Shown: positions 183 through 16,322, numbered from the stretch's first letter. The stretch: 64,000 nt of DNA from Arcobacteraceae bacterium (GCA_963676205.2 CAXXUS010000001.1:79725-143724), one strand, 5' to 3'. Notes: generated by a model not told the origin, from the sequence alone. A program made the numbers and translations.

Positions 183-1598
183 TTATTTAAGGAATTTTCC
201 CAACCCTTGTTTTAAAGAGTGGTTTAGCTCTTCACCAAGGATAGTTTTCATAATACTTTTATCTGTATATTTTAAAAGCTCTTTCTCTAGTTTTACAACT
301 TTTTCAGATTCGTTCTTAGCTTTCTCTTTCCAAAATGAAAGTTTCTCTTCAAACTCTTCTATATCACCAAACTCATCAACTATCTTTTTAAGCTTAGTCA
401 ACTCTTCATTCGCTTCATCAAATTTTGTTTGAAGGTTCACTTTCTCTTGAGTATGCTCTTTTTTAATCGCTTCTATAACTTGTTCATTGTTTTCTTGAAG
501 CATTTTATACTCACGCTTTACATCTGCAAGCTGTTTACTAAGTTTTAATGTAGTTACATTCTTATCCTCTACATCGTCAGCTTTTTTCTGTAAAAGTTTT
601 AGCTCACTTCTAAGGCTTTCTGTTTCGGCTAAGTCTTTTTCAAAGTTTAGCTCCATATCCTTTTTCTCTTTAACTAAACTCTTAACCTGCTCTTCGAGTT
701 GAACTGTTCTATTTTGCATAGCTATGATCTGAGCTTTAAGCTCTGCACTTAGCTCTTTACTATCTTGAAAGATCTTTCCTTTATCTTTCATCATACTAAC
801 TTTTAGATCACGTTTAAAACTAACCTCTTTAGTGATATCTCTGTTAACCGAGATAGTCCCAGTTAACTCACCACTATTATTAAGTACAGGTATCATATAA
901 CACTCTACGATAATAACATCACCGCTTTTTGTTACATTTTTTAAAGTACCTTTCCAAGAGCTTCCAGATTTAATAGTATTAACCATCTCATCATATATAG
1001 CATCAGCTACATCTTTATGCTTTAATACATTTAAAGGTTTACCTAAAAGCTCTTGTTTATCATACTCCATTAGGTTGCAAAATAGATCATTTACATATGT
1101 TATATTTCCATCGGTATCTGTTTTGATAACGATATTATTTAGATCGATAATATCTTTAAATCTCTCTAGATCTTTATTTTGCTGAACGATTAAAGACTCT
1201 TTATGAAGGTCTATTGCTAGCTGATTTATTTTTGTAAGTAGATGTTTTATATCGATAGGTTTTATTATATAATCATATACACGAAGCTTGATAGCTTCAC
1301 TTAAAAACTCATTATCTGAATAAGCAGTTGCAAAAAGTATCTCTACTTTTTGATCAACTTTTCTTATCTGCTGCATCATCTCTATACCTGTAAGTTTAGG
1401 CATATTGATATCACTGATTATAACATCAATAGAATCTTTGTTGGCTAGATATTTCTCTAAACCGTCTCTACCGTCACTTCCTGTATATATCTTATTTACA
1501 AAACCACCTAGAAGAGTCGATAGCTCATTTCTTATCTTATCATCATCCTCTACGTATAGAACGGTAAGTTTTTTTAGTAGCTCTTTATCTATCGCCAT
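183..1598 (-). CDS. Response-regulator receiver + PAS + long coiled-coil protein (no enzymatic or DNA-binding output)
   Basis: REC motifs (LYVEDDD, DVIISDINMPKLTG, ATAYSD, IIKP). One PAS (ITYVNDLFCNLMEYDKQELLGKPLNVLKH). About 200 aa Glu/Lys-rich heptad-like C-terminus. Start shares a base with the upstream stop (TAATG, 1596-1600). Confidence 0.85.
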   Translation of the reverse strand: MAIDKELLKKLTVLYVEDDDKIRNELSTLLGGFVNKIYTGSDGRDGLEKYLANKDSIDVIISDINMPKLTGIEMMQQIRKVDQKVEILFATAYSDNEFLSEAIKLRVYDYIIKPIDIKHLLTKINQLAIDLHKESLIVQQNKDLERFKDIIDLNNIVIKTDTDGNITYVNDLFCNLMEYDKQELLGKPLNVLKHKDVADAIYDEMVNTIKSGSSWKGTLKNVTKSGDVIIVECYMIPVLNNSGELTGTISVNRDITKEVSFKRDLKVSMMKDKGKIFQDSKELSAELKAQIIAMQNRTVQLEEQVKSLVKEKKDMELNFEKDLAETESLRSELKLLQKKADDVEDKNVTTLKLSKQLADVKREYKMLQENNEQVIEAIKKEHTQEKVNLQTKFDEANEELTKLKKIVDEFGDIEEFEEKLSFWKEKAKNESEKVVKLEKELLKYTDKSIMKTILGEELNHSLKQGLGKFLK

Positions 1599-1993
1599 TA
1601 TCTATTTTCAAAATCCATGGTTGAAACCAGTTCTATAAATTTTATAAAATCGAATGGTTTTAACAAATAGTTGTCTATACCTAAAGCTTCTGCTTTCTCC
1701 ATATACTCTTTTTCAGTATGTGCAGACATTATTACAAACGGCTTTTTTATACCTTTTTCTTGTGCTTTTTCTATTAGTTCAAGCCCGTTCATATTGGGCA
1801 TATTGATATCTGTTATAATAAGATCGATATCTGGATTAGCTTCTATTAAAGCTAAGGCTTTTTCTCCGTCAGGAGCTGTTAAAAAGTTTGCTTGAAGCTT
1901 TGTAAGAGTGTCCGTGATTATATTTAGTAGATCCTCTTCATCCTCTACAAATAAAAGCTTTAAGCTTTTAATTTTTGCAATTTTTTCTTGCAT
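1598..1993 (-). CDS. CheY-like single-domain response regulator
   Basis: 131 aa, receiver only: LLFVEDEEDL, DLIITDINMPNMNGLE, MSAHTEK, LLKPF. Confidence 0.85.
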   Translation of the reverse strand: MQEKIAKIKSLKLLFVEDEEDLLNIITDTLTKLQANFLTAPDGEKALALIEANPDIDLIITDINMPNMNGLELIEKAQEKGIKKPFVIMSAHTEKEYMEKAEALGIDNYLLKPFDFIKFIELVSTMDFENR

Positions 1994-2004
1994 TTAAATA
2001 TACC

Positions 2005-2484
2005 TTATGATGATTTCAACTCTTCTTTATGTACTACTGACTCAATATCCATAATTACAAGCATTTGATTGTTTTCAAGTCTTACAAAACCTTTTAAATA
2101 TTTTGAAGGTATCGCAGAACCCATATCTGAAACAGGTGATAGTTGCGTAGTATCTAGTTTTTGAACATCATCAACCTTATCAACTACAATACCAACCATC
2201 CTTTTATCACCTGTGATAACTGCGATAACGGCAGTGTTATCATCGTATCTTACATCTCCTGTATTAAATCTTATTCTAAGATCTAGAACAGGCACAACTT
2301 CACCTCTTAGGTTAATAAGCCCTTTTACCCATTCTGTAGTATTTGGAAGAGTAGTTATTATTTCAGGATATGTCAATATCTCTCTTATCTTAGGAAGCTC
2401 TATAGCATACTTCATACTACCTAGTTCAAAAGTCATATATTCACTATATTCTACGTTCTTTTTTCTTTCTATTTCGTCATTCAT
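2005..2484 (-). CDS. cheW: Chemotaxis coupling protein CheW
   Basis: 159 aa with the typical CheW pattern: FELGSMKYAIELPKIREIL, GLINLRGEVVPVLDLRIRF, GIVVDKVDDV. Confidence 0.85.
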   Translation of the reverse strand: MNDEIERKKNVEYSEYMTFELGSMKYAIELPKIREILTYPEIITTLPNTTEWVKGLINLRGEVVPVLDLRIRFNTGDVRYDDNTAVIAVITGDKRMVGIVVDKVDDVQKLDTTQLSPVSDMGSAIPSKYLKGFVRLENNQMLVIMDIESVVHKEELKSS

Positions 2485-2533
2485 AAAAATCCCTTAGTTA
2501 AATTTACTTTCTACTCTTTTATTGTTTAAGAAG

Positions 2534-2926
2534 CTATTCACTTTTTTTCCACTCTTTATAAAGAGCTTCGTGTTCCTCTATCTCTTCACGGGAAGGTTTT
2601 CTTCTACAAGATAGATAACCTTTAGTCCCATCACAAGTCTCAAATGGATATACTGTTGCAAATACCCAGTAAAAACCACCTGCTTTTGTAGCATTCTTTA
2701 CATATCCTGTCCATACCTCTCCACTTTGCACCGTATCCCATAAGGATTTAAATGCAACTTTCGGCATATCGGTATGTCTTACCATATTATGCGGTTGTCC
2801 CATAAGCTCATCTAGCTCATACCCCGCTACTTTACAAAAATCATCGTTTGCAAAGGTTATTATACCTTTTGCATCTGTCTCACTTACTAGGAATGCGTTA
2901 TCATCTAATACAGTCTCTCCTGCCAA
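2534..2926 (-). CDS. Stand-alone PAS sensor protein (CetB/Aer-type energy-taxis PAS)
   Basis: ITFANDDFCKVAGYELDELMGQPHNMVRHTDMPKVAFKSLWDTVQSGEVW...YWVFATV closely follows the Campylobacter CetB-type PAS pattern. I prefer the in-frame TTG at 2926, preceded by AAGGAG with 5-nt spacing, over the ORF-track ATG at 2989. Confidence 0.7.
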   Translation of the reverse strand: MAGETVLDDNAFLVSETDAKGIITFANDDFCKVAGYELDELMGQPHNMVRHTDMPKVAFKSLWDTVQSGEVWTGYVKNATKAGGFYWVFATVYPFETCDGTKGYLSCRRKPSREEIEEHEALYKEWKKSE

Positions 2927-3099
2927 AGCAACTCCTTTAAGTTCAAATATGAAATTTGGTCTATAAAACAATATTCTTAATAAATACATACCATTATAGA
3001 AAATAAAAACTTAAAAATAGCTCTAAAAAACACTATTTATATCAAACTTATTTTTATATGGATAAACTATTCACTATTGGATTAAAGGGGTTTTGATAC

Positions 3100-5010: not shown

Positions 5011-5163
5011 AATATATATCCTTTTAATTGGTTCCCAATTAAAAGGGAAACCTTGTTTAATAACTTCTTTTAACAAGATAGCCAAGCTATCTTTAAAGAA
5101 GCAAACCCTAAAGAAAACAACGAGTTGTTTTAAAATAATTTATATCTAAATATCTCTTTAGTG

Positions 5164-5412
5164 CTATAAAAAAAACTTACCTATTAGTAGTCCTAAAATA
5201 AAACCTACATTTAAAGCTACCAATACTCTTAATACATTGATCTTTAGGTTTACTTTAGGGAAATACTCAACTACTCTTTTTTGCATCTCCAAAGCTCTAT
5301 CGAACTCTTTTGAAGATTTATCTATATGTTCTAAAGTTCTATTTAATGTCAGCTCGGCAAGTTCGATCCTATCTACGATCTCTTTTGCCTGTTTAAAGCT
5401 CATATCACTCAT
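5164..5412 (-). CDS. Small tail-anchored membrane protein (hypothetical)
   Basis: 82 aa: hydrophilic helical N-terminus and a single C-terminal TM (VLRVLVALNVGFILGLLIGKFFL). ATGA overlap with the upstream ParA-like gene suggests co-translation. Confidence 0.5.
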   Translation of the reverse strand: MSDMSFKQAKEIVDRIELAELTLNRTLEHIDKSSKEFDRALEMQKRVVEYFPKVNLKINVLRVLVALNVGFILGLLIGKFFL

Positions 5413-6197
5413 TTAAGTTTAATCCATCTATCTAGATCAAAAAACACTTTGTTTAAAGTGTTTAGTACATAATCTTTTGCTTCTGTTTGCATACGTCTAA
5501 AGAAAAGATATTTTCTTGCACTCTCCATATCCCCTGAATCTTTAGATTCCATAGCTTTTTTTGCAAAGTCTGTGTTATTGTGTGCCATCTCCCAAACAGT
5601 ACTTCCAACATAACGGCTTAGTGTTATGATCTTATCGTTTTTTATAGGGAAGTATTTAGGCTTTTTTATATAATCACAAATAACAGAGTTGTTTCCTAGA
5701 TATTTATGCCCAAAGAAGTTGATAAACTGCTCATTGATATAATCAGGTTCCATACTAATAGCTCTATTTAGTGCAAATATAGTGTTCTCTTCAGGATTAT
5801 CTTCGATCTTTTTGATCTTTTTCATAGTTGCTATAGCATTTTTACCGTCAAGCTCACCGTCACCTAAAGGGATGATCCATTTAACGTTACCGAAAGATCC
5901 AACTTTTTTGATCTCTTCAAGAACTAAAGATGATGTTTTATTTCCACCAACATCAACGATAACTTCATGGTTGCTATCCATTAAGATCATCTCATCAAGT
6001 TCACTGATCTTATTAGTTCCTAGCATTCTTTTGTTTACTATCTCGGTACGGTTAAAAGACATACTATCGTTATTTTCATCATCGATCTCAATATATGTAA
6101 CTTTTTTCCCATGCTTTTTATAAAGATAAGGTGCTATAACCTGCATAGCTACAGTTGATTTACCTACACCACCTTTTGTTTGAGGGATGATTATCAT
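5409..6197 (-). CDS. ParA/MinD-superfamily P-loop ATPase (orphan, TraL/ParA-like)
   Basis: N-terminal deviant Walker A directly after the start (MIIIPQTKGGVGKST) and Walker B-like VIVDVGGN. No recognisable ParB or MinE partner nearby. Confidence 0.7.
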   Translation of the reverse strand: MIIIPQTKGGVGKSTVAMQVIAPYLYKKHGKKVTYIEIDDENNDSMSFNRTEIVNKRMLGTNKISELDEMILMDSNHEVIVDVGGNKTSSLVLEEIKKVGSFGNVKWIIPLGDGELDGKNAIATMKKIKKIEDNPEENTIFALNRAISMEPDYINEQFINFFGHKYLGNNSVICDYIKKPKYFPIKNDKIITLSRYVGSTVWEMAHNNTDFAKKAMESKDSGDMESARKYLFFRRMQTEAKDYVLNTLNKVFFDLDRWIKLK

Positions 6198-6241: not shown

Positions 6242-7051
6242 TTAATTTATAATCGCTTGTGTTCTTACTCTTTCAAGGTCATTGTATAGTTTCAGTTTAA
6301 AGCCCTCAACTGCTTTACCATCTTCTATATCTATAACAGCTAGCTGCAAAATAGTTTTGCAATTATTGGCAACATCGAAGTGTCCACCGATACCGGTAGT
6401 AACCTTTGCAATAGGCACTTTCTCATCCATACCTATAACCTTATCTCTACATCCAGTTAAGCCCATATCGGTAATATAAAATGTCCCCTTAGCGATCTCC
6501 ATATCATCAGTACCTATATGTGTATGAGTACCAATGATGGCACTAACTTTCCCCTCGAACATCTTCATCATTATTCGTTTTTCACTTGTAGCTTCTGCAT
6601 GAAAGTCTATAAAGATATTATTTACTCCATCGGCTATAAGTTTCTCAACCGTCTCAGTAGCATGATTAAAAGGGTTATTAGTATTTGGCATACCATATAT
6701 CCCCATAAGGTTTAAAACAGCAAGCTTTTCACCATTTACTTCCACTATATCTAAACCTTTTCCAGGAACCGTATCTGGATAATTATCAGGTCTTAAAACA
6801 GGTTTTGTCTCAAGCAGGGTTATCATCTCTTTTTTCTTATCAAAAGAGTGATTTCCACCTGTTATAATATCTATGCCGCAAGCTAAAAGCTCATCGCAGT
6901 TTTTAACCGTTAAACCAAAACCGTGGCTGGCATTCTCTGCGTTTGCTATTACAAAATCTATATCAAACTCTTTTTTTAACTGTATCAACTTATCTTTAAT
7001 GATACGTCTGCCAGGACGACCGACAATATCACCTATAAATGCTATTCTCAA
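6242..7051 (-). CDS. YmdB-family metallophosphoesterase (2',3'-cyclic-nucleotide phosphodiesterase-like)
   Basis: MRIAFIGDIVGRPGR, NAENASHGFG, GGNH, DFHAEATSEK and GTHTHI are the calcineurin-like metal ligand blocks of the YmdB/TIGR00282 family. TTG start overlaps the upstream kinase stop (TTGA). Confidence 0.85.
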   Translation of the reverse strand: MRIAFIGDIVGRPGRRIIKDKLIQLKKEFDIDFVIANAENASHGFGLTVKNCDELLACGIDIITGGNHSFDKKKEMITLLETKPVLRPDNYPDTVPGKGLDIVEVNGEKLAVLNLMGIYGMPNTNNPFNHATETVEKLIADGVNNIFIDFHAEATSEKRIMMKMFEGKVSAIIGTHTHIGTDDMEIAKGTFYITDMGLTGCRDKVIGMDEKVPIAKVTTGIGGHFDVANNCKTILQLAVIDIEDGKAVEGFKLKLYNDLERVRTQAIIN

Positions 7052-9597
7052 ATAGGTATCCTAATAATAAATTCAGCTCCGCTTTCGATATTCTTAGCTT
7101 CTATGGAACCGCCTATCTTTTCGATAATATTTTTCGTCATATATAAACCTATGCCCGTACCGATACCTTTAGGCTTTGTTGTAAAGTTTGCTTTAAATAT
7201 ATTTTTCAACACATCTTTTGGTATCCCGCCAGCAGTATCTTTTATCTTTAAAATTACGTAAATATCATCTTTTAAGACTTCGAATCTTATCACTCTTTCT
7301 CTTAAGTTCTTAGATATAAACTCATCTTTTGCATTATTTACAATATTTATGATCACGTGTTTAAACTCATTAGGGATAATATTGACCTTTAAATCTCCGT
7401 CACCCTCAAATTTTGTCACTATGGTATGTTTTATAAGATCGTCTTTCATCAGTACTAAAGATGAATCTATAACATCTTTTAAAATAGTTGATTGAAGCTC
7501 CCCTTTTGGTCTAAAGAAATCTCTAAACTCATCTATGGTCTCTACAGAGTGGTTAACCTGCTCTTTTATACGTTTACCAAACTCATGTATATAGTTCTCG
7601 TCTGCTTTATTACTTTTTAATAGATACTCAAGTTCATCGACTGAAAGTTTTATAATATTTAAAGGCTGTTTCCACTGATGGGCAACCGCATCCATCATCT
7701 CACCCATAGATGCCATTTTAGTTTTTTGGATAAGGATCATATCCTTTTCCCTTATCTTATCTATTTGACTTTTCACCTCATCGTTTAGGTTTTGGTTAAG
7801 CTCTTGAAGCTCTTTATTTTGTTTTATGATCAACTCTTTTGCTTTAACCTTATCATCCACATCGATAATAGCCCAAAGAACATGACCATCTTCAAGTTTT
7901 GCTTTTTCGTTTAAAGGGCTACCTGAGACCTCACACCAGATTGTTGAGCCGTCATTTATTCTAAACTGGAACTCTTCTCTTACTATCTCGTTCATAGCCA
8001 CTTGTGAAATTATATTTTTTGCAAAATTCTCATACTCATCATCATCCAAGTGAAACATTCTGGTACTTTTACCGATAATATCATCTTTACTTTTATAACC
8101 TGTTAGCTTTAGAAGTCTATCGTTCACATCTATGATATTTCTATCCTCATCAACTATTAAAAACCCTACAGATGTATAATCATATATATTTTTAAACTTA
8201 CTAAGTGCTTTTTCCATCTCTATCTTATCATCTAAAGAGTTTGCAACAGATACAAAAGTTTGGTTATCAGGTAGTAGATTTAAAGAGATCTCAATATATA
8301 CTTTTTCACCACTCTTAGCGATACAAGCTTTTCTTACTTTTGAGATATGACCACTCTTTTTAGCCTCAGCTAAAGCTTCTTTTGCAATATCTTTAAAATC
8401 CTCGTGAGCTAGATCTAGACAATTTAAACTTTTGAACTCATCTTGGGTATATCCAAAAAGTTTAGTATATGTTGGGTTTACTTCTAAAAAGTTTCCTTCA
8501 AGATCCAAAATAGCAATACCGCTGTCAACCTCATCTATAAGGGTTTGAAGTTTTTTATTATTTACTTTTAGTTTATTTTTTACGCTCAACTCAAAATATA
8601 TCACCGTAAATATGATACCAAGCAAAAATATTAAAATTGAGCTTACAAGTAAGGTATTTAAACTCTTATTCATAATATAGTTGCTTTTTGTATTTAGCAT
8701 AAGTGCACCTACAACTTTTTTCGATATAGGATTTTTCAAAGGAAAAACTAGTATCAGGTTTTTATTTTTTTTATCATATGTTGCAAAATCTTTTCCCATT
8801 GATATATGCTCTAAAATATAAGCTTTCACACCATCAGATATCTGCTTTATCGAGGGGTTAAGTTTTGTTACCTTTTCAAGGTTGCTTTTTTCATAATAGA
8901 ACCCTTCAAAATCTGATCTAACATAATTGTTTTTCTCTTGTACTTTTTTATCAACAATATCTTTTGATACTAAAAACTTCACTATAAGCTCATAGTGTTC
9001 CATAAACTCTTCTATCATCCCGTAAGCATCAAATGACAGTTCAACGCTTCCAATATGTTCATCTTGATACATTATAGGATATACAAATCTAAAACCATTG
9101 TATATCTTGCCTTCTTCAAAGCCGTCAACTGCTTTTTTATTTTGGTTAACATATTTAACAGTAGCCCTAGCATCACTTAGACTATCTCCAAACTTATTTG
9201 GTCTATGAAACCTTAAAAAGCTTTCGTTGTTGGGTAGATGGAAATGTAACTGTTTTAAGTTGTATTTTTTAAGTATTTTATAATCATCTGCCAATAGATC
9301 GTAAAGTGCAGACCTTATCTTAGCTTTATTCTCTTTATCGGCTTTATAAGCACTACGATATAGCTCTAAAACCTCTTTTCTTGATATCATCGTCGTAAAA
9401 AGTAGATCAGCTCTTTGTTTAAACTTATGATAAAAAGTATCGTATCCCATACGATATTCTTGCAGCTTTATAGCTATCTCCTCTTCTACCTTTTTATCCT
9501 TTTCATATTCTAAAAAGATAAATACTATAATAGAGATCGATATAAATAAAAAAGATAAACCTATAAGAGTTTTTTTGCTATTGCTCATCTGCCCCAC
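7048..9597 (-). CDS. Sensor histidine kinase (TM - Cache-like periplasmic domain - TM - 2x PAS - kinase core)
   Basis: Periplasmic LHFHLPNNESFLRFHRPNKFGD block (Cache-type). Two PAS domains. H-box MDAVAHQWKQPLNII. N/G boxes (NIVNNAKDE, GTGIGLYM). GTG start at 9597; an alternative ATG lies at 9588. Confidence 0.9.
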   Translation of the reverse strand: MGQMSNSKKTLIGLSFLFISISIIVFIFLEYEKDKKVEEEIAIKLQEYRMGYDTFYHKFKQRADLLFTTMISRKEVLELYRSAYKADKENKAKIRSALYDLLADDYKILKKYNLKQLHFHLPNNESFLRFHRPNKFGDSLSDARATVKYVNQNKKAVDGFEEGKIYNGFRFVYPIMYQDEHIGSVELSFDAYGMIEEFMEHYELIVKFLVSKDIVDKKVQEKNNYVRSDFEGFYYEKSNLEKVTKLNPSIKQISDGVKAYILEHISMGKDFATYDKKNKNLILVFPLKNPISKKVVGALMLNTKSNYIMNKSLNTLLVSSILIFLLGIIFTVIYFELSVKNKLKVNNKKLQTLIDEVDSGIAILDLEGNFLEVNPTYTKLFGYTQDEFKSLNCLDLAHEDFKDIAKEALAEAKKSGHISKVRKACIAKSGEKVYIEISLNLLPDNQTFVSVANSLDDKIEMEKALSKFKNIYDYTSVGFLIVDEDRNIIDVNDRLLKLTGYKSKDDIIGKSTRMFHLDDDEYENFAKNIISQVAMNEIVREEFQFRINDGSTIWCEVSGSPLNEKAKLEDGHVLWAIIDVDDKVKAKELIIKQNKELQELNQNLNDEVKSQIDKIREKDMILIQKTKMASMGEMMDAVAHQWKQPLNIIKLSVDELEYLLKSNKADENYIHEFGKRIKEQVNHSVETIDEFRDFFRPKGELQSTILKDVIDSSLVLMKDDLIKHTIVTKFEGDGDLKVNIIPNEFKHVIINIVNNAKDEFISKNLRERVIRFEVLKDDIYVILKIKDTAGGIPKDVLKNIFKANFTTKPKGIGTGIGLYMTKNIIEKIGGSIEAKNIESGAEFIIRIPI

Positions 9598-11551
9598 TAT
9601 ATTTTAATCTTACTTCAAAAACAGCACCGTCACCCTCATTATAAGCTAAAATAGTACCATCTTGATCATCTATGATCTTTCTTGCCACATTAAGTCCAAT
9701 ACCTATACCGCTATGCTCTTTTGTTGATACGAACGGCTCAAAGATCTTATCGATAATACTTTGCGATATTCCGCCTGCATTATCTTTAAATTTTACTACT
9801 ATCATATCTTTTACTTGGTTAAACCCTATTGTAATAACAAGCTTTCGTTTTTCATAGTCATCGATATTTACAAGTTCATCAAGTGCATTATTGATGATAA
9901 TGATCCAAACCTGCTCTATCCTTTGTCTTTGTACAAAACTTTTATATATCTCTTTATCTTTGTCTATATCTATATTAAACTCTATATCATTTAAAAATAT
10001 CTTTGATATCTGCTTTGATCTATTGAATGCCATAGTTAAAGATGTAGCCAAAGTATGGTATATATTTACATACTCCTTCTCCTCTTTTGACTTTTGAGAC
10101 ATCTCCCTCATAGATTCAATAATATTAGCTATCCTTTTAAGCCCCTCATTTATCCTTGCTGCATCCTCTTGTATCCTTGATTTTGTCTCGTTTTCAGGCA
10201 AAGTACCTATATCATAGTTCATCATCTCAAAGTTACCCATGATATATGTTAAAGGTGTATTTATCTCATGTGTTATACCTGCAGCTAACTGACCGATAGC
10301 AGTAAACTTTATATTTTTTAACTGCTCCTCTTCAAGTATCTTTGTTTGTTTTAGATTTTGTATGGTCTTAACTGCAATCTCTTGTTTTAACGAGTTTGCT
10401 AAAAGCTCTTTTTCGGTTATATCGAATATAATCCCAAGTATCCCGCTTATGTTTTTCTTATGCATAAATTTAGCTTTATGTATCTCTAAAACCCTATGAT
10501 CCATACTATCGTGGTATGTAAATTTATAACTTTGATAAGAGAGCCTGCTATCTATCATCTCTACATCTTTAGAGCTACTATAATCTGATATCTCTTTATC
10601 TGCAATATCATATATTGTTTTTCCGATGATCTCTTTTTTAGGTTTATCAAAAAAGTCGCAAAAAGCTTGGTTACAATCTATATATTTAAAATCTTTATCT
10701 TTAACAAAAACAGGTATCGGTATGGTATTTATCAGTTTATTTGTAAAACCTAGGTTGTGTCTTAATCTTGATGTTTTATCTTTTACAAGTTTTGCAAGCA
10801 GTCTATTTTGCTCATCAAACTTTAGATTGTTCTTCTCTATCATTCTAGTTACTTTTCTAGATAAAAATATAGAAACACTAATAACTATAACTACAAAAAC
10901 TATTGCCAATCCGATAAGAAAGCTATTTGTTTCTTCATACTTTTGTTTTATCTGATCTGTTCTTTTTTGGAGTTTTTTATCTATATGGGAAATATAAACA
11001 CCTGCATAGATACTCCATCCAAACGGTTTATAGTACTCTACATAAGTTAGTTTCTCTTTATTCTCTAAGGATTTGTCGTTGTTTGTAACAGATAAATACT
11101 CAATAAAAGCACTACCATCTTTTTGTGCAAGCTCATACCCCTCTTTCATATAATATTTTCCAAAAGGGTCTTTAAAATTAAAGGCATTTTGACCAATTAT
11201 ATCACTATTTTCATGACTTAGTATCAAACCTTTGTCATCAACTATATAGATAAAGGTTTGCTCGCCGAAATTTATATTTGAAACTCTATTTAAAAGTTTT
11301 GTTTTTAACTTATCTAAAGGTGTATCGTTTTGTTTTATCCTAAAATCAAATAAAGAGATAAGCTGCCCTACTTCAAGCTTTAAAAGCTCTTTTTCATGCT
11401 CTAAATATATCTGTTTGCTTTTTACCATCTCCTCATTTAAAAAATACTCTTGTTTAATAGAAGCGATGGTTGCAATAGTTGATACCAACACAAATATAAA
11501 TATGATCGGTAGATATTTTATATATGCGGCTAAACTTTTATCTATGTTCAT
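9578..11551 (-). CDS. Sensor histidine kinase (TM - Cache - TM - PAS - kinase core)
   Basis: Cache-like FIYIVDDKGLILSHENSDIIGQNAFNFKD, one PAS, H-box AAGITHEINTPLTYIMGNFEMM and G box GIGIGLNV. ATG at 11551 has GAGGTGG 6 nt upstream; the ORF-track start at 11587 lacks an RBS. Confidence 0.9.
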   Translation of the reverse strand: MNIDKSLAAYIKYLPIIFIFVLVSTIATIASIKQEYFLNEEMVKSKQIYLEHEKELLKLEVGQLISLFDFRIKQNDTPLDKLKTKLLNRVSNINFGEQTFIYIVDDKGLILSHENSDIIGQNAFNFKDPFGKYYMKEGYELAQKDGSAFIEYLSVTNNDKSLENKEKLTYVEYYKPFGWSIYAGVYISHIDKKLQKRTDQIKQKYEETNSFLIGLAIVFVVIVISVSIFLSRKVTRMIEKNNLKFDEQNRLLAKLVKDKTSRLRHNLGFTNKLINTIPIPVFVKDKDFKYIDCNQAFCDFFDKPKKEIIGKTIYDIADKEISDYSSSKDVEMIDSRLSYQSYKFTYHDSMDHRVLEIHKAKFMHKKNISGILGIIFDITEKELLANSLKQEIAVKTIQNLKQTKILEEEQLKNIKFTAIGQLAAGITHEINTPLTYIMGNFEMMNYDIGTLPENETKSRIQEDAARINEGLKRIANIIESMREMSQKSKEEKEYVNIYHTLATSLTMAFNRSKQISKIFLNDIEFNIDIDKDKEIYKSFVQRQRIEQVWIIIINNALDELVNIDDYEKRKLVITIGFNQVKDMIVVKFKDNAGGISQSIIDKIFEPFVSTKEHSGIGIGLNVARKIIDDQDGTILAYNEGDGAVFEVRLKYSGADEQ

Positions 11552-14081
11552 TGAATACCACCTCGATAACCGCTCCGTTATCATCATTGTATATTTTTAT
11601 ATCGCCCTCTTGATCATCAACTATCTTTTTAGCTACGTTCAGTCCTATACCAAGTCCGCCGTGTTTTTTTGTACCTATAAAAGGGTCAAATATATGTTCT
11701 AATATCTCCTCTTTAATACCGCCTCCGTTATCTTTTATACTTACTTTTATCTTTTCATCTATACTTTGTATATGGATATCTATTTTTCTATCCTCATAAT
11801 CTAGACCGTTATCTAGCGCATCTAAAGCATTATTTAAAAGTATTATCCAAAGCTGTTCAACCCTTTGTTTTTGTATAAATGCAGTATATGTATATTTATC
11901 TTTTTGCATACCGACACTAAAAAGTTCATCGTTAATAAACACCCTTGATATCTGTTTTGCTTTATTGTTTATAATTGTAGAAGCTATAATAAGTGTCTCA
12001 TAAACATTTGCCGCGTATTTACTCTCTTGAGTTGATTGAGATACCTCTCTCATGGTATCTATGATAGCTTCTATTCTTGCAATCCCCTCATCAACTTTTC
12101 CAAAATCTTTTAAGAATGTCTCTTTTAATTGAGACTCATCCATATCCTCAACATCATAACGCATCATCTCCATATTACCCTTGATATAGGTTAGCGGAGT
12201 ATTGATCTCATGAGTTATTCCTGCGGCTAAAGAACCAATAGAGCTTAGTCTTGCATTTTTGATCTTATCCTCAACATGCTTCTCTTGCTGTTCAATATTT
12301 TTTTGAACCTCATCTTTTACTTTTTGCTCAAGCTCTTTATTTAGGTTTTCAAGTTTTATCTTCTCCTCCAAAGAGTTTATAATAAATGCAAACGTCTTTT
12401 TATCAGGAAGAAGATCAAAGGATATATCAAGATAAACATCTTGACCATCTTTATGTCTATATACGCTTTCTATATGGGAAACCGAACCTTTTAAAACCGT
12501 ATCTCTTATAGCTTGCTCGATTTGTTTCTTATGCTTTGGATCTACTAAAGTGATAATATTCTTACCGTAAAGCTCCCTTTTTGAATAACCTAAAAATCTA
12601 CTGCAGGCATTGTTTGCTTTTATAATATTACCTGTGCTATCCATCATACCGATACCGCTGTTTGCGTTATTGATAATTGCATTGTACTCTTTAAGCTTCA
12701 AGCTTAGGTGTTCATTTAAACTATCAACTTTCTTTTTATCGCTTATATCTTCTGCAACAGCTATATAACCGATGATCTCGTGTTTATCGTATTGGGGTTC
12801 TATATTTATATAAACATAATATTTTTTACCATATTTATCTTTATTGATAAGCTCACCAGACCAGTTCTTTCCATCTACGATAGTGCTCCACAGATCTATA
12901 TAGATATCATTAGGATTTGATTCATTTTTTACTATACTATGACTTCTTCCTAGAAGCTCCTCTTTACTATAGCCTGAAACTTTACAAAAAGCTTCACTTA
13001 CGTATGTTATCTTACCGTGCACATCTGTTCTTGAAGTGATGATATGCTTATCTATTAAAGATAAAGAGTCACTAAGCTCTTTAGTTCTCTCTTTGATCTG
13101 TTTATCAAGATCTAAATTTAAATTATTTAGTTTATTGTTTATCCTTGCAAAAGGTTTTGATAATATAAATGCCAAAGTAATAGAGATGATAATCGAAACG
13201 ATCAACATGATCCTAAAAAGCTCATAATAATCGCTCTTTAGCTCCTCTACAAAATCCTCTGCATAAGATAAGATCAAAATAAACTCATTCTCATTTATTA
13301 GATTTAATCTTTTTGACATAATCTGATCATTGAAATAAACATCATTTTTAAGTATCTGTTTATAATCTTGGGGAAATTGTGTTTTGATATCTATATTGCT
13401 GTCTTTATATTTTGACCAATTGAACTTTTCATTTTTATGGAGTATAAACTTTCCATCTTTATCCACTAGATACCAGTTCTCTTTATAGGAGCTTTTTATA
13501 GATTTAAAGATAGATTTTTCAAGATCTACATCAAGAACTACATATCTATCTTCTATCTTTTTAAAGACTTTATAATAAGCGATATCTTTCTTTTCATCAT
13601 AGATAAAATCACTGATATAAAGCTCATTGTTCTTAAGTTTTTGGAGATCTTTAAAATAGGTTTTATTTTTAATATCTCTAAAACCTTGATCTTTTGAACT
13701 ATCTATCTTTCCCGATTGATCTTTAAATAGTTTTATACTATCTTGTGTATCACTTCCTATTAAAGCAAAAGAGATAAAATTATCCTCTGCTTCAAGTACC
13801 GTATAAAAAAGGCTATAAAGATCTTTTAATTTTTTATTTGCAACATATTGTTGAAAATGGTAGTTTGAGCTAAGAACATCTATTTTTAACTTTACCTCTT
13901 TTTGATAAGATGATATCTCTTCATCTTTTTCAACAAGCATCTCATAAAAAAGATCTGTCTTATATGAAAGATATCCATCCTCTATAACCTTTGTAAATAT
14001 ATAAAAAGTTACCGAGGATAAAATTAATCCAAAAAGTATAAAGCTGGTAAAAAGTTTAAATTGAAAAGTTTTAAAAAACAT
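11538..14081 (-). CDS. Sensor histidine kinase (TM - large periplasmic domain - TM - 2x PAS - kinase core)
   Basis: Two TM segments bracket a ~260-aa extracytoplasmic region. PAS (ITYVSEAFCKVSGYSKEELLGRSHSIVKN). H-box AAGITHEINTPLTYIKGNMEMM. G box GLGIGLNV. The core is paralogous to the next kinase downstream. Confidence 0.9.
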   Translation of the reverse strand: MFFKTFQFKLFTSFILFGLILSSVTFYIFTKVIEDGYLSYKTDLFYEMLVEKDEEISSYQKEVKLKIDVLSSNYHFQQYVANKKLKDLYSLFYTVLEAEDNFISFALIGSDTQDSIKLFKDQSGKIDSSKDQGFRDIKNKTYFKDLQKLKNNELYISDFIYDEKKDIAYYKVFKKIEDRYVVLDVDLEKSIFKSIKSSYKENWYLVDKDGKFILHKNEKFNWSKYKDSNIDIKTQFPQDYKQILKNDVYFNDQIMSKRLNLINENEFILILSYAEDFVEELKSDYYELFRIMLIVSIIISITLAFILSKPFARINNKLNNLNLDLDKQIKERTKELSDSLSLIDKHIITSRTDVHGKITYVSEAFCKVSGYSKEELLGRSHSIVKNESNPNDIYIDLWSTIVDGKNWSGELINKDKYGKKYYVYINIEPQYDKHEIIGYIAVAEDISDKKKVDSLNEHLSLKLKEYNAIINNANSGIGMMDSTGNIIKANNACSRFLGYSKRELYGKNIITLVDPKHKKQIEQAIRDTVLKGSVSHIESVYRHKDGQDVYLDISFDLLPDKKTFAFIINSLEEKIKLENLNKELEQKVKDEVQKNIEQQEKHVEDKIKNARLSSIGSLAAGITHEINTPLTYIKGNMEMMRYDVEDMDESQLKETFLKDFGKVDEGIARIEAIIDTMREVSQSTQESKYAANVYETLIIASTIINNKAKQISRVFINDELFSVGMQKDKYTYTAFIQKQRVEQLWIILLNNALDALDNGLDYEDRKIDIHIQSIDEKIKVSIKDNGGGIKEEILEHIFDPFIGTKKHGGLGIGLNVAKKIVDDQEGDIKIYNDDNGAVIEVVFNEHR

Positions 14082-14110
14082 AAAAGATACCGTTTTAAAT
14101 ATCTTTTATC

Positions 14111-14485
14111 TTAATCGTTTTCCAAAACTTCTATGATCTTGTTCTCCAAAGCTTGAAGAGACTCAAAAGGTTTCATAAGGTAGTGTGTAGCACCCTCCTT
14201 ATGAGATTTTAAAACCTTATCTAGTGTTGAGTAAGCTGTCATCATTACAACTTTTTGTTCAGGATTTTTTGCTATGATCTTTTCTAAAGCATCTAGTCCG
14301 TTCATTTGCGGCATCATAATATCCAAAAGAATTAGATCATAACTATCATCGATAGTATTTATAGCAGTTATCGGATTTGAAAAGGTTGTAACACTGTATT
14401 TACCGTTTCTACTTAAGAACCTATCGATCATACTTAAGATCTCATTCTCATCATCTATTACTGCTATTTTATATCTATTATCCAT
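14111..14485 (-). CDS. Single-domain response regulator (receiver only)
   Basis: 124 aa: IAVIDDENEIL, DLILLDIMMPQMNGLD, MTAYS, LMKPF. TAATG overlap with the upstream chemoreceptor gene. Confidence 0.9.
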   Translation of the reverse strand: MDNRYKIAVIDDENEILSMIDRFLSRNGKYSVTTFSNPITAINTIDDSYDLILLDIMMPQMNGLDALEKIIAKNPEQKVVMMTAYSTLDKVLKSHKEGATHYLMKPFESLQALENKIIEVLEND

Positions 14486-15894
14486 TAATCATCCTTTTTT
14501 TCAAACAAATCTTTTGCTGCTTGTTTCATTACCACTACGTTCTTCTCTTCTAGTATTTTATCTAGTATATGGAAGACGTCTTGACTTGCTTCTTCAATTT
14601 TATCAACTTTTTGCTCTATTAATGCTTTGGTACAAGTAACAGAATTGTCACCACACTCAATTGCAAGTAGATTTGCTTCATCATGCACTATAGCGTGAGG
14701 TCTATCAAGCAGGTGGTAAGACTTGGTAAAGCTAAACTCCTCTTTACCTAAACCTGTCGTATACCATTTTCCAAGACGACAATCTTTATGAGTTGCCGCT
14801 TTAAACTCATTGTCTTCACCGAATATTAATTGATATAGATTGTTTTTATAGATCACGTGGTCTAGTTTTGCAAGGTTTATAAATATCTTATTACTAATAG
14901 ATTCAACCTCATAAACACTTCTACTTGCATTTTTTTGGAACTGGGTCATTAGTTTAATAAGTACGTCAACTCTATCTTTTGTCTCTTTTACAACCTCTGC
15001 AACAACATCAGAGCTTTTTTTCATACGTGCTGTTTCACTTTGGATAGATTCAACAACCATTTTTATCTCTTTAGCAGCCTCAGCACTTCTTGAAGCTAGG
15101 TTTCTAACCTCACCTGCAACTACCGCAAAACCTTTACCAGCTTCCCCTGCAGTTGCCGCTTCAACAGCTGCATTTAATGAAAGTATATTTGTTTGAAATG
15201 ATATTTGATCTATTACTGTGATTGCATCTGCTATCTCATCACTTTTTGCAACCAGTGTTGTTACTATCTCATTTTCAGTTTCGATCTGAGAGTTTAAGTT
15301 ACTTGTATCATCAACGATATTCTTTGTAAGTGAAAGGCCGTCTTCTGAGCCTGAAGCTGTCTCTTTTGACTCTTTTGCCATAGATTTAAGCTCTTCTAAA
15401 AGCTCTAAATAAACAGCTTGTGTATTATTTAACGACATATTCATATTTTGGTTATGCTTATGTAAAAGTCCGCTGTCTTTATTATCATGGATTGATGTTT
15501 TTACTAAAGATATGATAGCTATATCGTTATCTTTTTTAATTGCAACCTTAGCTTCACAATCATCTAGAACTATTCTATCTTGATTGGTTCTAATAGCTTC
15601 AGATACGCTTGAGTAGTCTTTGATATTCTCTTTTGCTCTATCATTAGCAAAAATAACTTCTGAATTTTTACCAAAAACAACTAAACCCTCCTCTTGGGAA
15701 AATGCTGCTATTTTTTTATACATATCTAGCTCTTTTAAAGCATTATCAAGTTCACTTCTATCAAGTTGTTTTGAATTAAGCTCCTCGATCTGTTTATCTT
15801 TTTGAAAGATATTATTCTTTAAAGACTCTATCTCTTTATTTAATCTCTCGATCTCTTCATTTTGTTTATTGCAATTACCAAAAAACATACACAA
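14485..15894 (-). CDS. Soluble methyl-accepting chemotaxis protein with C-terminal CZB zinc-binding domain (TlpD-like)
   Basis: No TM segment. MCP signalling hairpin [48 protein letters not shown]-terminal DHVIYK...CRLGKW...HAIVH fits the 3His/1Cys CZB signature. Confidence 0.85.
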
Positions 15895-16072
15895 CTCTCC
15901 TGATAAATTTTTTGATTATTCTAGCATAAGTTGGTTTGTAAAAAGTTTCTTTGTGCATAGATTTCACAATTATTAAACAAATTTACAATAAAATTGCATA
16001 AGTATAATTTTTTTATTTACAAGAAAAACAAAAATATAATATTTTTTTATACTTTTAACTTTAGGAGTAATT

Positions 16073-16294
16073 ATGATAGATGCAACATTAACTATGATAC
16101 TGATCGTTAGTTTAATAGTAAGTTTCTCGGTATTAGCCGTTTTTATATGGGGAGCAAAAGAGGGTCAGTTTGATGATAGTAGAAGAATGATGGACGGTCT
16201 TTTATTTGATTCACAAGATGATCTAAACGAAGCTGTTGATAAAGAGAAGAAAAAAAATAAAATAAAAAAACCGACTAATCCAGAAAAGGAATAG
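16073..16294 (+). CDS. ccoS: cbb3-type cytochrome oxidase maturation protein CcoS/FixS
   Basis: 73 aa. Single N-terminal TM followed by FIWGAKEGQFDDSRRMMDGLLFD, the conserved CcoS motif. Confidence 0.7.
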   Translation: MIDATLTMILIVSLIVSFSVLAVFIWGAKEGQFDDSRRMMDGLLFDSQDDLNEAVDKEKKKNKIKKPTNPEKE

Positions 16295-16322
16295 CCGGTT
16301 TGAAATTAGAAAAAACTAATTA

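Follow-up and report, generated by a model that had tools for sequence, protein, structure and literature searches.

A recurring chemoreceptor–receiver–kinase module of Arcobacteraceae mixes two-component and chemotaxis parts

Phosphorylatable receivers that modulate receptor–kinase signalling without binding the motor are exemplified by CheV and by the phosphate sink CheY1 of Sinorhizobium. In both cases, CheA is the phosphate donor; CheV carries a fused CheW domain, and neither receiver is known to be served by dedicated HisKA kinases. In Myxococcus xanthus, Che3 with CrdS/CrdA provides a case in which a single response regulator is the target of both a chemosensory system and a classical histidine kinase (PMC3147164). 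Arcobacter-type genomes encode five CheY-like proteins, the roles of most of which are still open (PMC9321776). One of them, a CheY homologue encoded beside a chemoreceptor gene in Arcobacter and found also in Sulfurospirillum, Sulfuricurvum and Sulfurimonas, was named CheYm by Mo et al. in 2022 (PMC9321776, section 9 and S7 Table), who left its function unassigned and placed it in the Che pathway from its gene neighbour alone. The regulation and positioning of soluble receptors of the TlpD class are described as unresolved too (PMC13001251). Here we analyse a 64,000-nucleotide stretch from an Arcobacteraceae bacterium (genome G000, contig 1, 79725–143724, ~31% GC; the window), in which five consecutive minus-strand genes encode a soluble chemoreceptor (methyl-accepting chemotaxis protein, MCP), a single-domain receiver (REC) that fits CheYm, and three sensor histidine kinases (HK1, HK2, and HK3). 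Comparison with related genomes supports a module that recurs more than at random and combines parts of two-component and chemotaxis systems, in line with the hybrid proposed in the initial annotation of the window, and the module recurs on different backbones.

The five genes occupy positions 7048–15888, and their boundaries overlap or nearly abut. TAATG at 14485 is common to the stop of the MCP gene (14485..15888, 467 amino acids (aa)) and the start of the receiver gene (14111..14485, 124 aa). The receiver gene is separated by 29 nucleotides (nt; 14082..14110) from HK1 (11538..14081, 847 aa), which overlaps HK2 (9578..11551, 657 aa) at 11538–11551; a strong ribosome-binding site (GAGGTGG) precedes the ATG of HK2 at 11551. 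TTGA at 7048–7051 is common to the stop of HK3 (7048..9588, 846 aa) and the start of a gene for a YmdB-family metallophosphoesterase (6242..7051, minus strand; Pfam YmdB, 7.9e-86). Open reading frames (ORFs) and junction sequences agree with the string and with these boundaries as first annotated, and two starts are revised. The annotated HK2/HK3 overlap of 20 nt (9578–9597) holds if HK3 starts at GTG 9597; ATG 9588 is more plausible, and the overlap is then 11 nt (9578–9588). For the MCP, ATG 15888, with AGGAG 8 nt on its 5' side, is a more likely start than TTG 15894, where the string had been taken to begin.

The pairing of receptor and receiver is widely conserved. Among 41 related genomes, 16 carry a full-length MCP orthologue (41–73% identity), and in 13 of these a REC orthologue lies directly downstream; in one more, the pair is split by a contig break. 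A REC orthologue is present in none of the 25 genomes that lack the MCP orthologue (nominal Fisher p = 3e-9). In every orthologous locus examined, MCP–REC(–HK) spacing is tight, with gaps of 23 nt or less or with overlaps. The pair spans several Campylobacterales families, on unrelated backbones. In Arcobacteraceae, the backbone consists of MCP, REC, zero to three kinases, YmdB, ParA-like, s82, ubiE, and xseA. Elsewhere, MCP, REC, and a PAS-HK are followed by a DEAD-box helicase (G017), MCP and REC are followed by an aminotransferase and PBP1 (G025 and G037), or REC-PAS-HK, MCP, and REC follow one another with overlapping boundaries (G031). YmdB, ParA, and s82 do not lie beside the module in any of these genomes. 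Therefore, the invariant core is MCP plus REC, and YmdB, ParA, ubiE, and xseA, which the initial annotation had read as a continuation of the string, are unrelated neighbours. YmdB is translationally coupled to HK3 in the window, yet is a family-specific backbone gene and not a module member.

Kinases are frequent third members of the MCP–REC module. The kinase slot of the Arcobacteraceae backbone is empty in L029 and L033, where YmdB directly follows REC, and holds one kinase in L030, L031, L032, L034, L035, and G002. In L036, it holds one kinase and a homologue of the sensor half of HK3 that lacks the kinase part; in G024, it holds a 701-aa PAS protein in which no kinase domains were detected, an 852-aa kinase of the HK1/HK2 type, and a 479-aa protein. 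Three kinases are found only in the window and in its sister species (L028). Across relatives, the first two genes of the five-gene order are conserved and the kinase slot is variable. Slot proteins of 479–481 aa occur in L036 (11393–12838) and in L016 of G024 (9329–10768). The former matches the N-terminal (sensor) half of HK3 without the kinase core, making it a sensor-only relative, and the latter has no Pfam match. Two loci have lost the receiver gene or lack it. In G018 (L021 4840–6015), a DDE_Tnp_1/DUF772 insertion sequence transposase takes the place of REC, the HK1-type kinase and the YmdB backbone are kept, and the MCP match contained two stops in the first search; this module appears to be decaying. 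G006 has the MCP orthologue without REC.

As annotated, the three kinases carry different extracytoplasmic sensors (Pfam, transmembrane (TM) scan). Each has two TM segments around a periplasmic domain of 180–285 aa. HK1 has a dCache-like periplasmic domain of ~260 aa (weak dCache_1 match), two PAS domains, HisKA, and HATPase_c; HK2 has sCache_2, one PAS domain, HisKA, and HATPase_c; HK3 has dCache_3, two PAS domains, HisKA, and HATPase_c. The H-box of HK1, AAGITHEINTPLTYIKGN, is the same as that of HK2, AAGITHEINTPLTYIMGN, and both kinases have the CheYm-linked type of core, whose family H-box is GITHEINTPLTY. This core is rare, being found in 3 of the ~68 kinase-like ORFs of G000, namely HK1, HK2, and a REC-HK on contig 2 that lies behind a second MCP(CZB)–CheYm pair. 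The mutual E-value within the family is ~1e-78, and the next match among G000 kinases is at 1e-34.

This core travels with the receiver. A search of the 41 genomes with the HK1 core gives 29 matches in 18 genomes; 20 of the matches are no more than 5 kb away from a CheYm-type receiver (21 if G018 is counted; receiver group cut-off E <= 1e-25). By genome, core and receiver are both present in 17, the receiver alone in 1, the kinase alone in 1, and neither in 22 (n = 41, nominal p = 2e-9). The first kinase after the receiver reads AAG[IV][TI]HEINTPLTY[IL]KGN.EM in all eight loci with a kinase there, at lengths of 393–711 aa and with different sensors. A fixed DHp helix combined with variable inputs is as predicted for a shared cognate receiver. 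In addition, the best curated match for all three kinase cores is AtoS and the receiver matches the AtoC/NtrC/CpxR class, so the curated matches of both partners agree. These comparisons give strong support to a predicted phosphotransfer from HK1 and HK2 to CheYm.

HK3 is probably not cognate to the adjacent receiver. Its H-box is AVAHQWKQPLN, and its core matches those of HK1 and HK2 only at E ~1e-10. The HQWKQPL-type H-box is that of the dominant kinase type of G000 (53 ORFs), and this core type does not travel with the receiver, occurring in the kinase slot only in this genus. The initial annotation had suggested that all three kinases may converge on one receiver. For HK1 and HK2, the proposal is in keeping with the association of their core with the receiver family. 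For HK3, convergence would agree with its translational coupling to HK2 and YmdB and with the HK3 orthologue at the same position in the sister species, but the divergent H-box and core (~1e-10 versus 1e-78), the membership of a 53-member family, and the absence of HK3-type kinases from the slot of every other genus, L036 having the kinase-less sensor-half homologue instead, make a three-way convergence very unlikely. The 53 G000 ORFs with the H-box H[QE]W[KR]QPL are themselves a very large, apparently orphan kinase family, and those examined have no adjoining DNA-binding regulator.

REC is composed of a receiver domain only (Pfam Response_reg, 1.1e-23) and has no output domain, as annotated. 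It was aligned to E. coli CheY and to CheYz of G000 as a second reference. D12, D13, D57, T87, Y106, and K109 are kept, supporting a bare receiver that is predicted to be phosphorylatable. The FliM-contact positions are not: W58 is replaced by I and K91/K92 by T/L, K119 falls in a gap, and N59 is replaced by M. With these replacements, REC is predicted to be unable to bind FliM as CheY does. REC has DIMMP in place of the D[WV]NMP of CheYs, and among curated matches, the receivers of AtoC, NtrC, and CpxR score better than CheYs, with Spo0F also among the best structural-sequence matches. In detail, therefore, the receiver is not CheY-like, contrary to the first description.

These features fit CheYm, the match being one of description (gene position, T87 and Y106 kept, W58, K91, and K119 gone) and not of accession. 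The accession numbers of CheYm and CheYw are 10–13 apart in two species of the S7 Table (PMC9321776), which equals the gene spacing in the window. CheYz (with W58), F7-CheY (adjoining CheA), and CheYw (window 1598–1993, adjoining the sole stand-alone CheW) are separate genes in G000, which also encodes CheA and CheV. The arrangement had not been recognised as a described module. Its MCP–REC pairing is already published as CheYm, whereas the kinases and the link to CZB are not mentioned there (PMC9321776).

CheYm might instead be an auxiliary substrate of CheA, serving as a phosphate sink or as an alternative CheY for the arrays of the adjacent receptor, with the kinases as bystanders in a permissive intergenic slot. 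Its classification as a Che protein from its neighbour (PMC9321776), the range of zero to three kinases in the slot, and the pairs without adjacent kinases (L029, L033, G025, G037, and G028) would be expected on this account. However, the co-occurrence of kinase core and receiver by genome would not, nor would the kinases that adjoin the receiver in paralogous modules, nor a receiver nearer to NtrC, AtoC, and CpxR than to CheYs, with DIMMP in place of DxNMP. We consider a CheA-fed CheYm unlikely, and HK1 and HK2 better candidates for the donor.

The receiver belongs to a small group within G000. A phmmer search with REC against all G000 ORFs finds five members, at 259, 120, 110, 104, and 93 bits, and the next match is at 65 bits. 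For three of the five, the gene directly upstream encodes an MCP with a terminal CZB domain (chance ~1e-5). The first of these pairs is that of the soluble receptor in the window. In the second, also on contig 1, the MCP is 765 aa long and contains one TM segment, which is N-terminal. The third, on contig 2 (71439–77301), consists of an 853-aa TM MCP(CZB), CheYm, a REC-HK with the HEINTPL core, and a REC-GGDEF-EAL protein. The receiver carried by the REC-HK itself is of the CheY-like DINMP type, and the contig-2 module hints at a chain from CheA through REC-HK to CheYm with a cyclic di-GMP (c-di-GMP) output. The idea that CheYm generally substitutes for methylation-based adaptation was rejected, as the two TM CZB receptors with CheYm paralogues carry the consensus AASLEETAAA.

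Across the 41 genomes, the CheYm group has 29 receivers, 23 of which have an MCP directly upstream. A Pfam CZB match lies just upstream on the same strand of 20 of the 29; in 3 further cases, the MCP directly upstream has no detectable CZB, though one of these MCPs has a degenerate CZB from which the ligands are gone, and 1 receiver lies at a contig edge. A metagenome scan with the receiver alignment, in which degenerate patterns caught generic receivers, gave one true relative, L104, with the order MCP(CZB), REC, HEINTPL-type kinase.

The same loci bear on the possibility that the unit is an ordinary two-component system with a target outside chemotaxis (c-di-GMP enzymes, a transcription factor, or a phosphorelay), the MCP being merely co-expressed. 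The contig-2 module runs on into the REC-GGDEF-EAL protein, Spo0F is among the best structural-sequence matches of REC, and McvR-like single-domain regulators act on transcription factors (PMC8995066). Against such a target, 23 of the 29 receivers have an MCP directly upstream; these cases come from three or more paralogous lineages and from different backbones, and stop and start codons often overlap. Beside the pair, moreover, neither Hpt nor any other output gene shows conservation. An Hpt gene is absent from all loci examined, no genome-wide search for Hpt having been made. On balance, a target outside chemotaxis is improbable, and we favour an action on the receptor.

We propose that the unit is a chemoreceptor-linked two-component branch. 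Its core would be a soluble TlpD-class CZB chemoreceptor that is co-translated with a dedicated single-domain receiver, CheYm. A specialised HisKA kinase family, with one DHp/H-box and swappable inputs (dCache, sCache, PAS, or, in the paralogous modules, an N-terminal CheY-like REC), is likely to donate phosphate to CheYm and probably acts as its phosphatase too; the HExxN motif is present. Through HK1 and HK2, the level of CheYm~P would be set by two signals, periplasmic or sensed by PAS domains, and HK3 would be a passenger from the general kinase pool of the genome that probably signals elsewhere. CheYm~P may act on the neighbouring CZB receptor or on its CheW/CheA complex, through kinase control, gain, or localisation; this step is suggested by gene linkage only. 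In this way, sensors that are not chemoreceptors would gain entry into taxis. To the scheme as a whole, with HK1 and HK2 setting CheYm phosphorylation, CheYm~P modulating the co-encoded CZB receptor or array, and HK3 signalling elsewhere, we give an even chance. The more specific proposal that classical kinases and not CheA phosphorylate CheYm, and that CheYm~P binds back to its CZB receptor or array and retunes its signalling or placement, is tentative, and we would put it at clearly less than even.

Several observations weigh against this scheme. The pair stands without an adjacent kinase at the five places named above (L029, L033, G025, G037, and G028) and in the contig-1 paralogue, so the donor there is encoded elsewhere or is CheA. 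Related genomes are not independent samples, so both nominal p-values overstate the support. One CheYm (G001:C7) follows an MCP without any CZB. Five of the eight CZB receptors of G000 have no such receiver, and CheYm is not a general CZB partner. Finally, Mo et al. took CheYm to function within the Che pathway (PMC9321776).

If the proposal is true, Cache, PAS, or CheA-driven REC inputs gate one specific chemoreceptor, which would amount to a new modular input or adaptation layer, widespread in environmental Campylobacterota. Two-component sensing would then enter chemotaxis at a single receptor, not through CheA or the motor, and many apparently orphan kinases and receivers in these genomes would be explained. 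CheYm gains a concrete, testable upstream partner in a kinase family with a fixed DHp and swappable sensors, and the pair is tied preferentially to CZB receptors. For signalling engineering, a transmitter/receiver pair that stays fixed while its inputs are exchanged is attractive as well. What appears to be new is the dedicated kinase family and the bias towards CZB, neither being reported in the literature found; the part families and the MCP–CheYm adjacency are already known.

The analysis supports a TlpD-class soluble CZB receptor (Pfam, TM scan, orthologue alignment, AlphaFold2 model), as the initial annotation had suggested. The MCP matches MCPsignal (PF00015, 1.6e-32) and CZB (PF13682, 8.7e-13). 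No TM segment is found, the maximum 19-residue Kyte–Doolittle mean being 1.18 (threshold 1.6). The CZB ligands H344, C370, H398, and H402, scored with the pattern Hxx[WFYL]...Cx[L]Gx[W]...HxxxH, are invariant across 10 orthologues. In the AlphaFold2 model (pLDDT 80), an N-terminal coiled coil is followed by a five-stranded PAS-like alpha/beta domain (~68–130), an MA hairpin, and a helical C-terminal CZB. Foldseek matches the model to the cytoplasmic domains of Tsr, Tm14, and TM1143 (MA domain only). The canonical methylation consensus is absent from this soluble MCP, although most MCPs of G000 have it. Outside the CZB zinc site, C111, C412, and C419 (DCEAK; EC....V.C.K) are invariant in 10 orthologues and may form an extra redox or metal site; such a site is not described for TlpD in the available parts of PMC6715182, PMC12871147, and PMC13001251.

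The string is preceded by an intrinsic terminator of the upstream cytochrome c gene (16262..16300, minus strand; fold −20.9 kcal/mol, z = −7.9, then U7). This places the MCP gene first in a new transcription unit. A promoter-like TTTACA-16-AATAAT on the minus strand (15915..15942), 27 nt upstream of the MCP ATG, has 10/12 consensus matches and is a consensus match only. Internal promoters or terminators could split the string, a possibility raised with the initial annotation; in a consensus scan, such signals were not above shuffles (65 found versus 71 expected). One internal promoter match (14504–14477, 10/12) was rejected, because a promoter lying over the start codon of REC would not drive its expression. 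The REC–HK1 spacer contains a 12-bp AU-rich hairpin, the 3' arm of which lies over the HK1 AUG, followed by a U-run (fold of 14062–14125, −12.4 kcal/mol, z = −3.0). This hairpin may serve as an attenuator, reducing the expression of the kinases compared with that of MCP and REC.

At the other end, a hairpin with a U-rich tail (5020..5046, minus strand) parts s82 from the probable true start of ubiE (TTG 5010 or ATG 4983), so the co-transcribed unit probably ends before ubiE–xseA, and this hairpin is its likely 3' limit. The long ubiE ORF begins at TTG 5085; the later start is probable, since homologues align only from residue 28 of this ORF onwards and the hairpin and U-run lie at 5046–5020.

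The ParA-like ATPase (5164–6197, minus strand) shares 96% identity with its counterpart in the sister species and 77–78% across genera, clearly above the MCP (63–73%) and about equal to the receiver. Its gene is always followed by that of an 82-aa tail-anchored protein. A role as an array-positioning partner, by analogy with PpfA/ParC, was set aside for the module, since YmdB, ParA, and s82 are absent beside the module on the other backbones. After xseA, the window encodes a CetB-like PAS-only protein, the sole stand-alone CheW, CheYw, and a REC-PAS protein (183–2989, minus strand). In four other genera (L030, L031, L034, and L035), a gene for an MCP of 410–723 aa separates xseA from the PAS gene. 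At this place the window has only a 110-nt gap, and the partner transducer has seemingly been lost or moved.

Like H. pylori TlpD, the receptor is a cytoplasmic MCP in which a short MA hairpin is combined with a C-terminal CZB that has zinc ligands of the 3His/1Cys kind (PMC6715182, PMC12871147, and PMC13001251). A predicted N-terminal helix and small PAS-like domain repeat the layout reported for TlpD (PMC12871147), and both receptors lack canonical methylation sites. Among the differences, order-level relatives match only at ~31–35% identity over the MA and CZB regions, and the present MCP has the additional invariant cysteines C111, C412, and C419. The available parts of the three papers mention no adjacent receiver or kinases for TlpD, the H. 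pylori locus itself not having been inspected. Like CheYm as published, REC is a single-domain receiver beside a chemoreceptor gene that keeps T87 and Y106 and lacks W58, K91, and K119; the CZB nature of the partner receptor and the dedicated kinase family appear in the present comparison only and not in that account (PMC9321776). The locus shares with Che3–CrdS/CrdA a hybrid Che/two-component logic. There, however, the shared regulator is an NtrC-type transcription factor with a gene-expression output, whereas the receiver here lacks any output domain and is linked to a single receptor gene. For the three kinase cores and the receiver, the best curated matches are E. coli AtoS/AtoC (NCBIfam NF008468 and NF008469). 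The scores are far below the equivalog cut-offs, the sensors differ, and there is no sigma-54 or DNA-binding output, so the likeness is one of class and not of orthology. With CheV and Sinorhizobium CheY1, CheYm would share the character of a motor-independent receiver, and it differs from both in its linked HisKA kinases.

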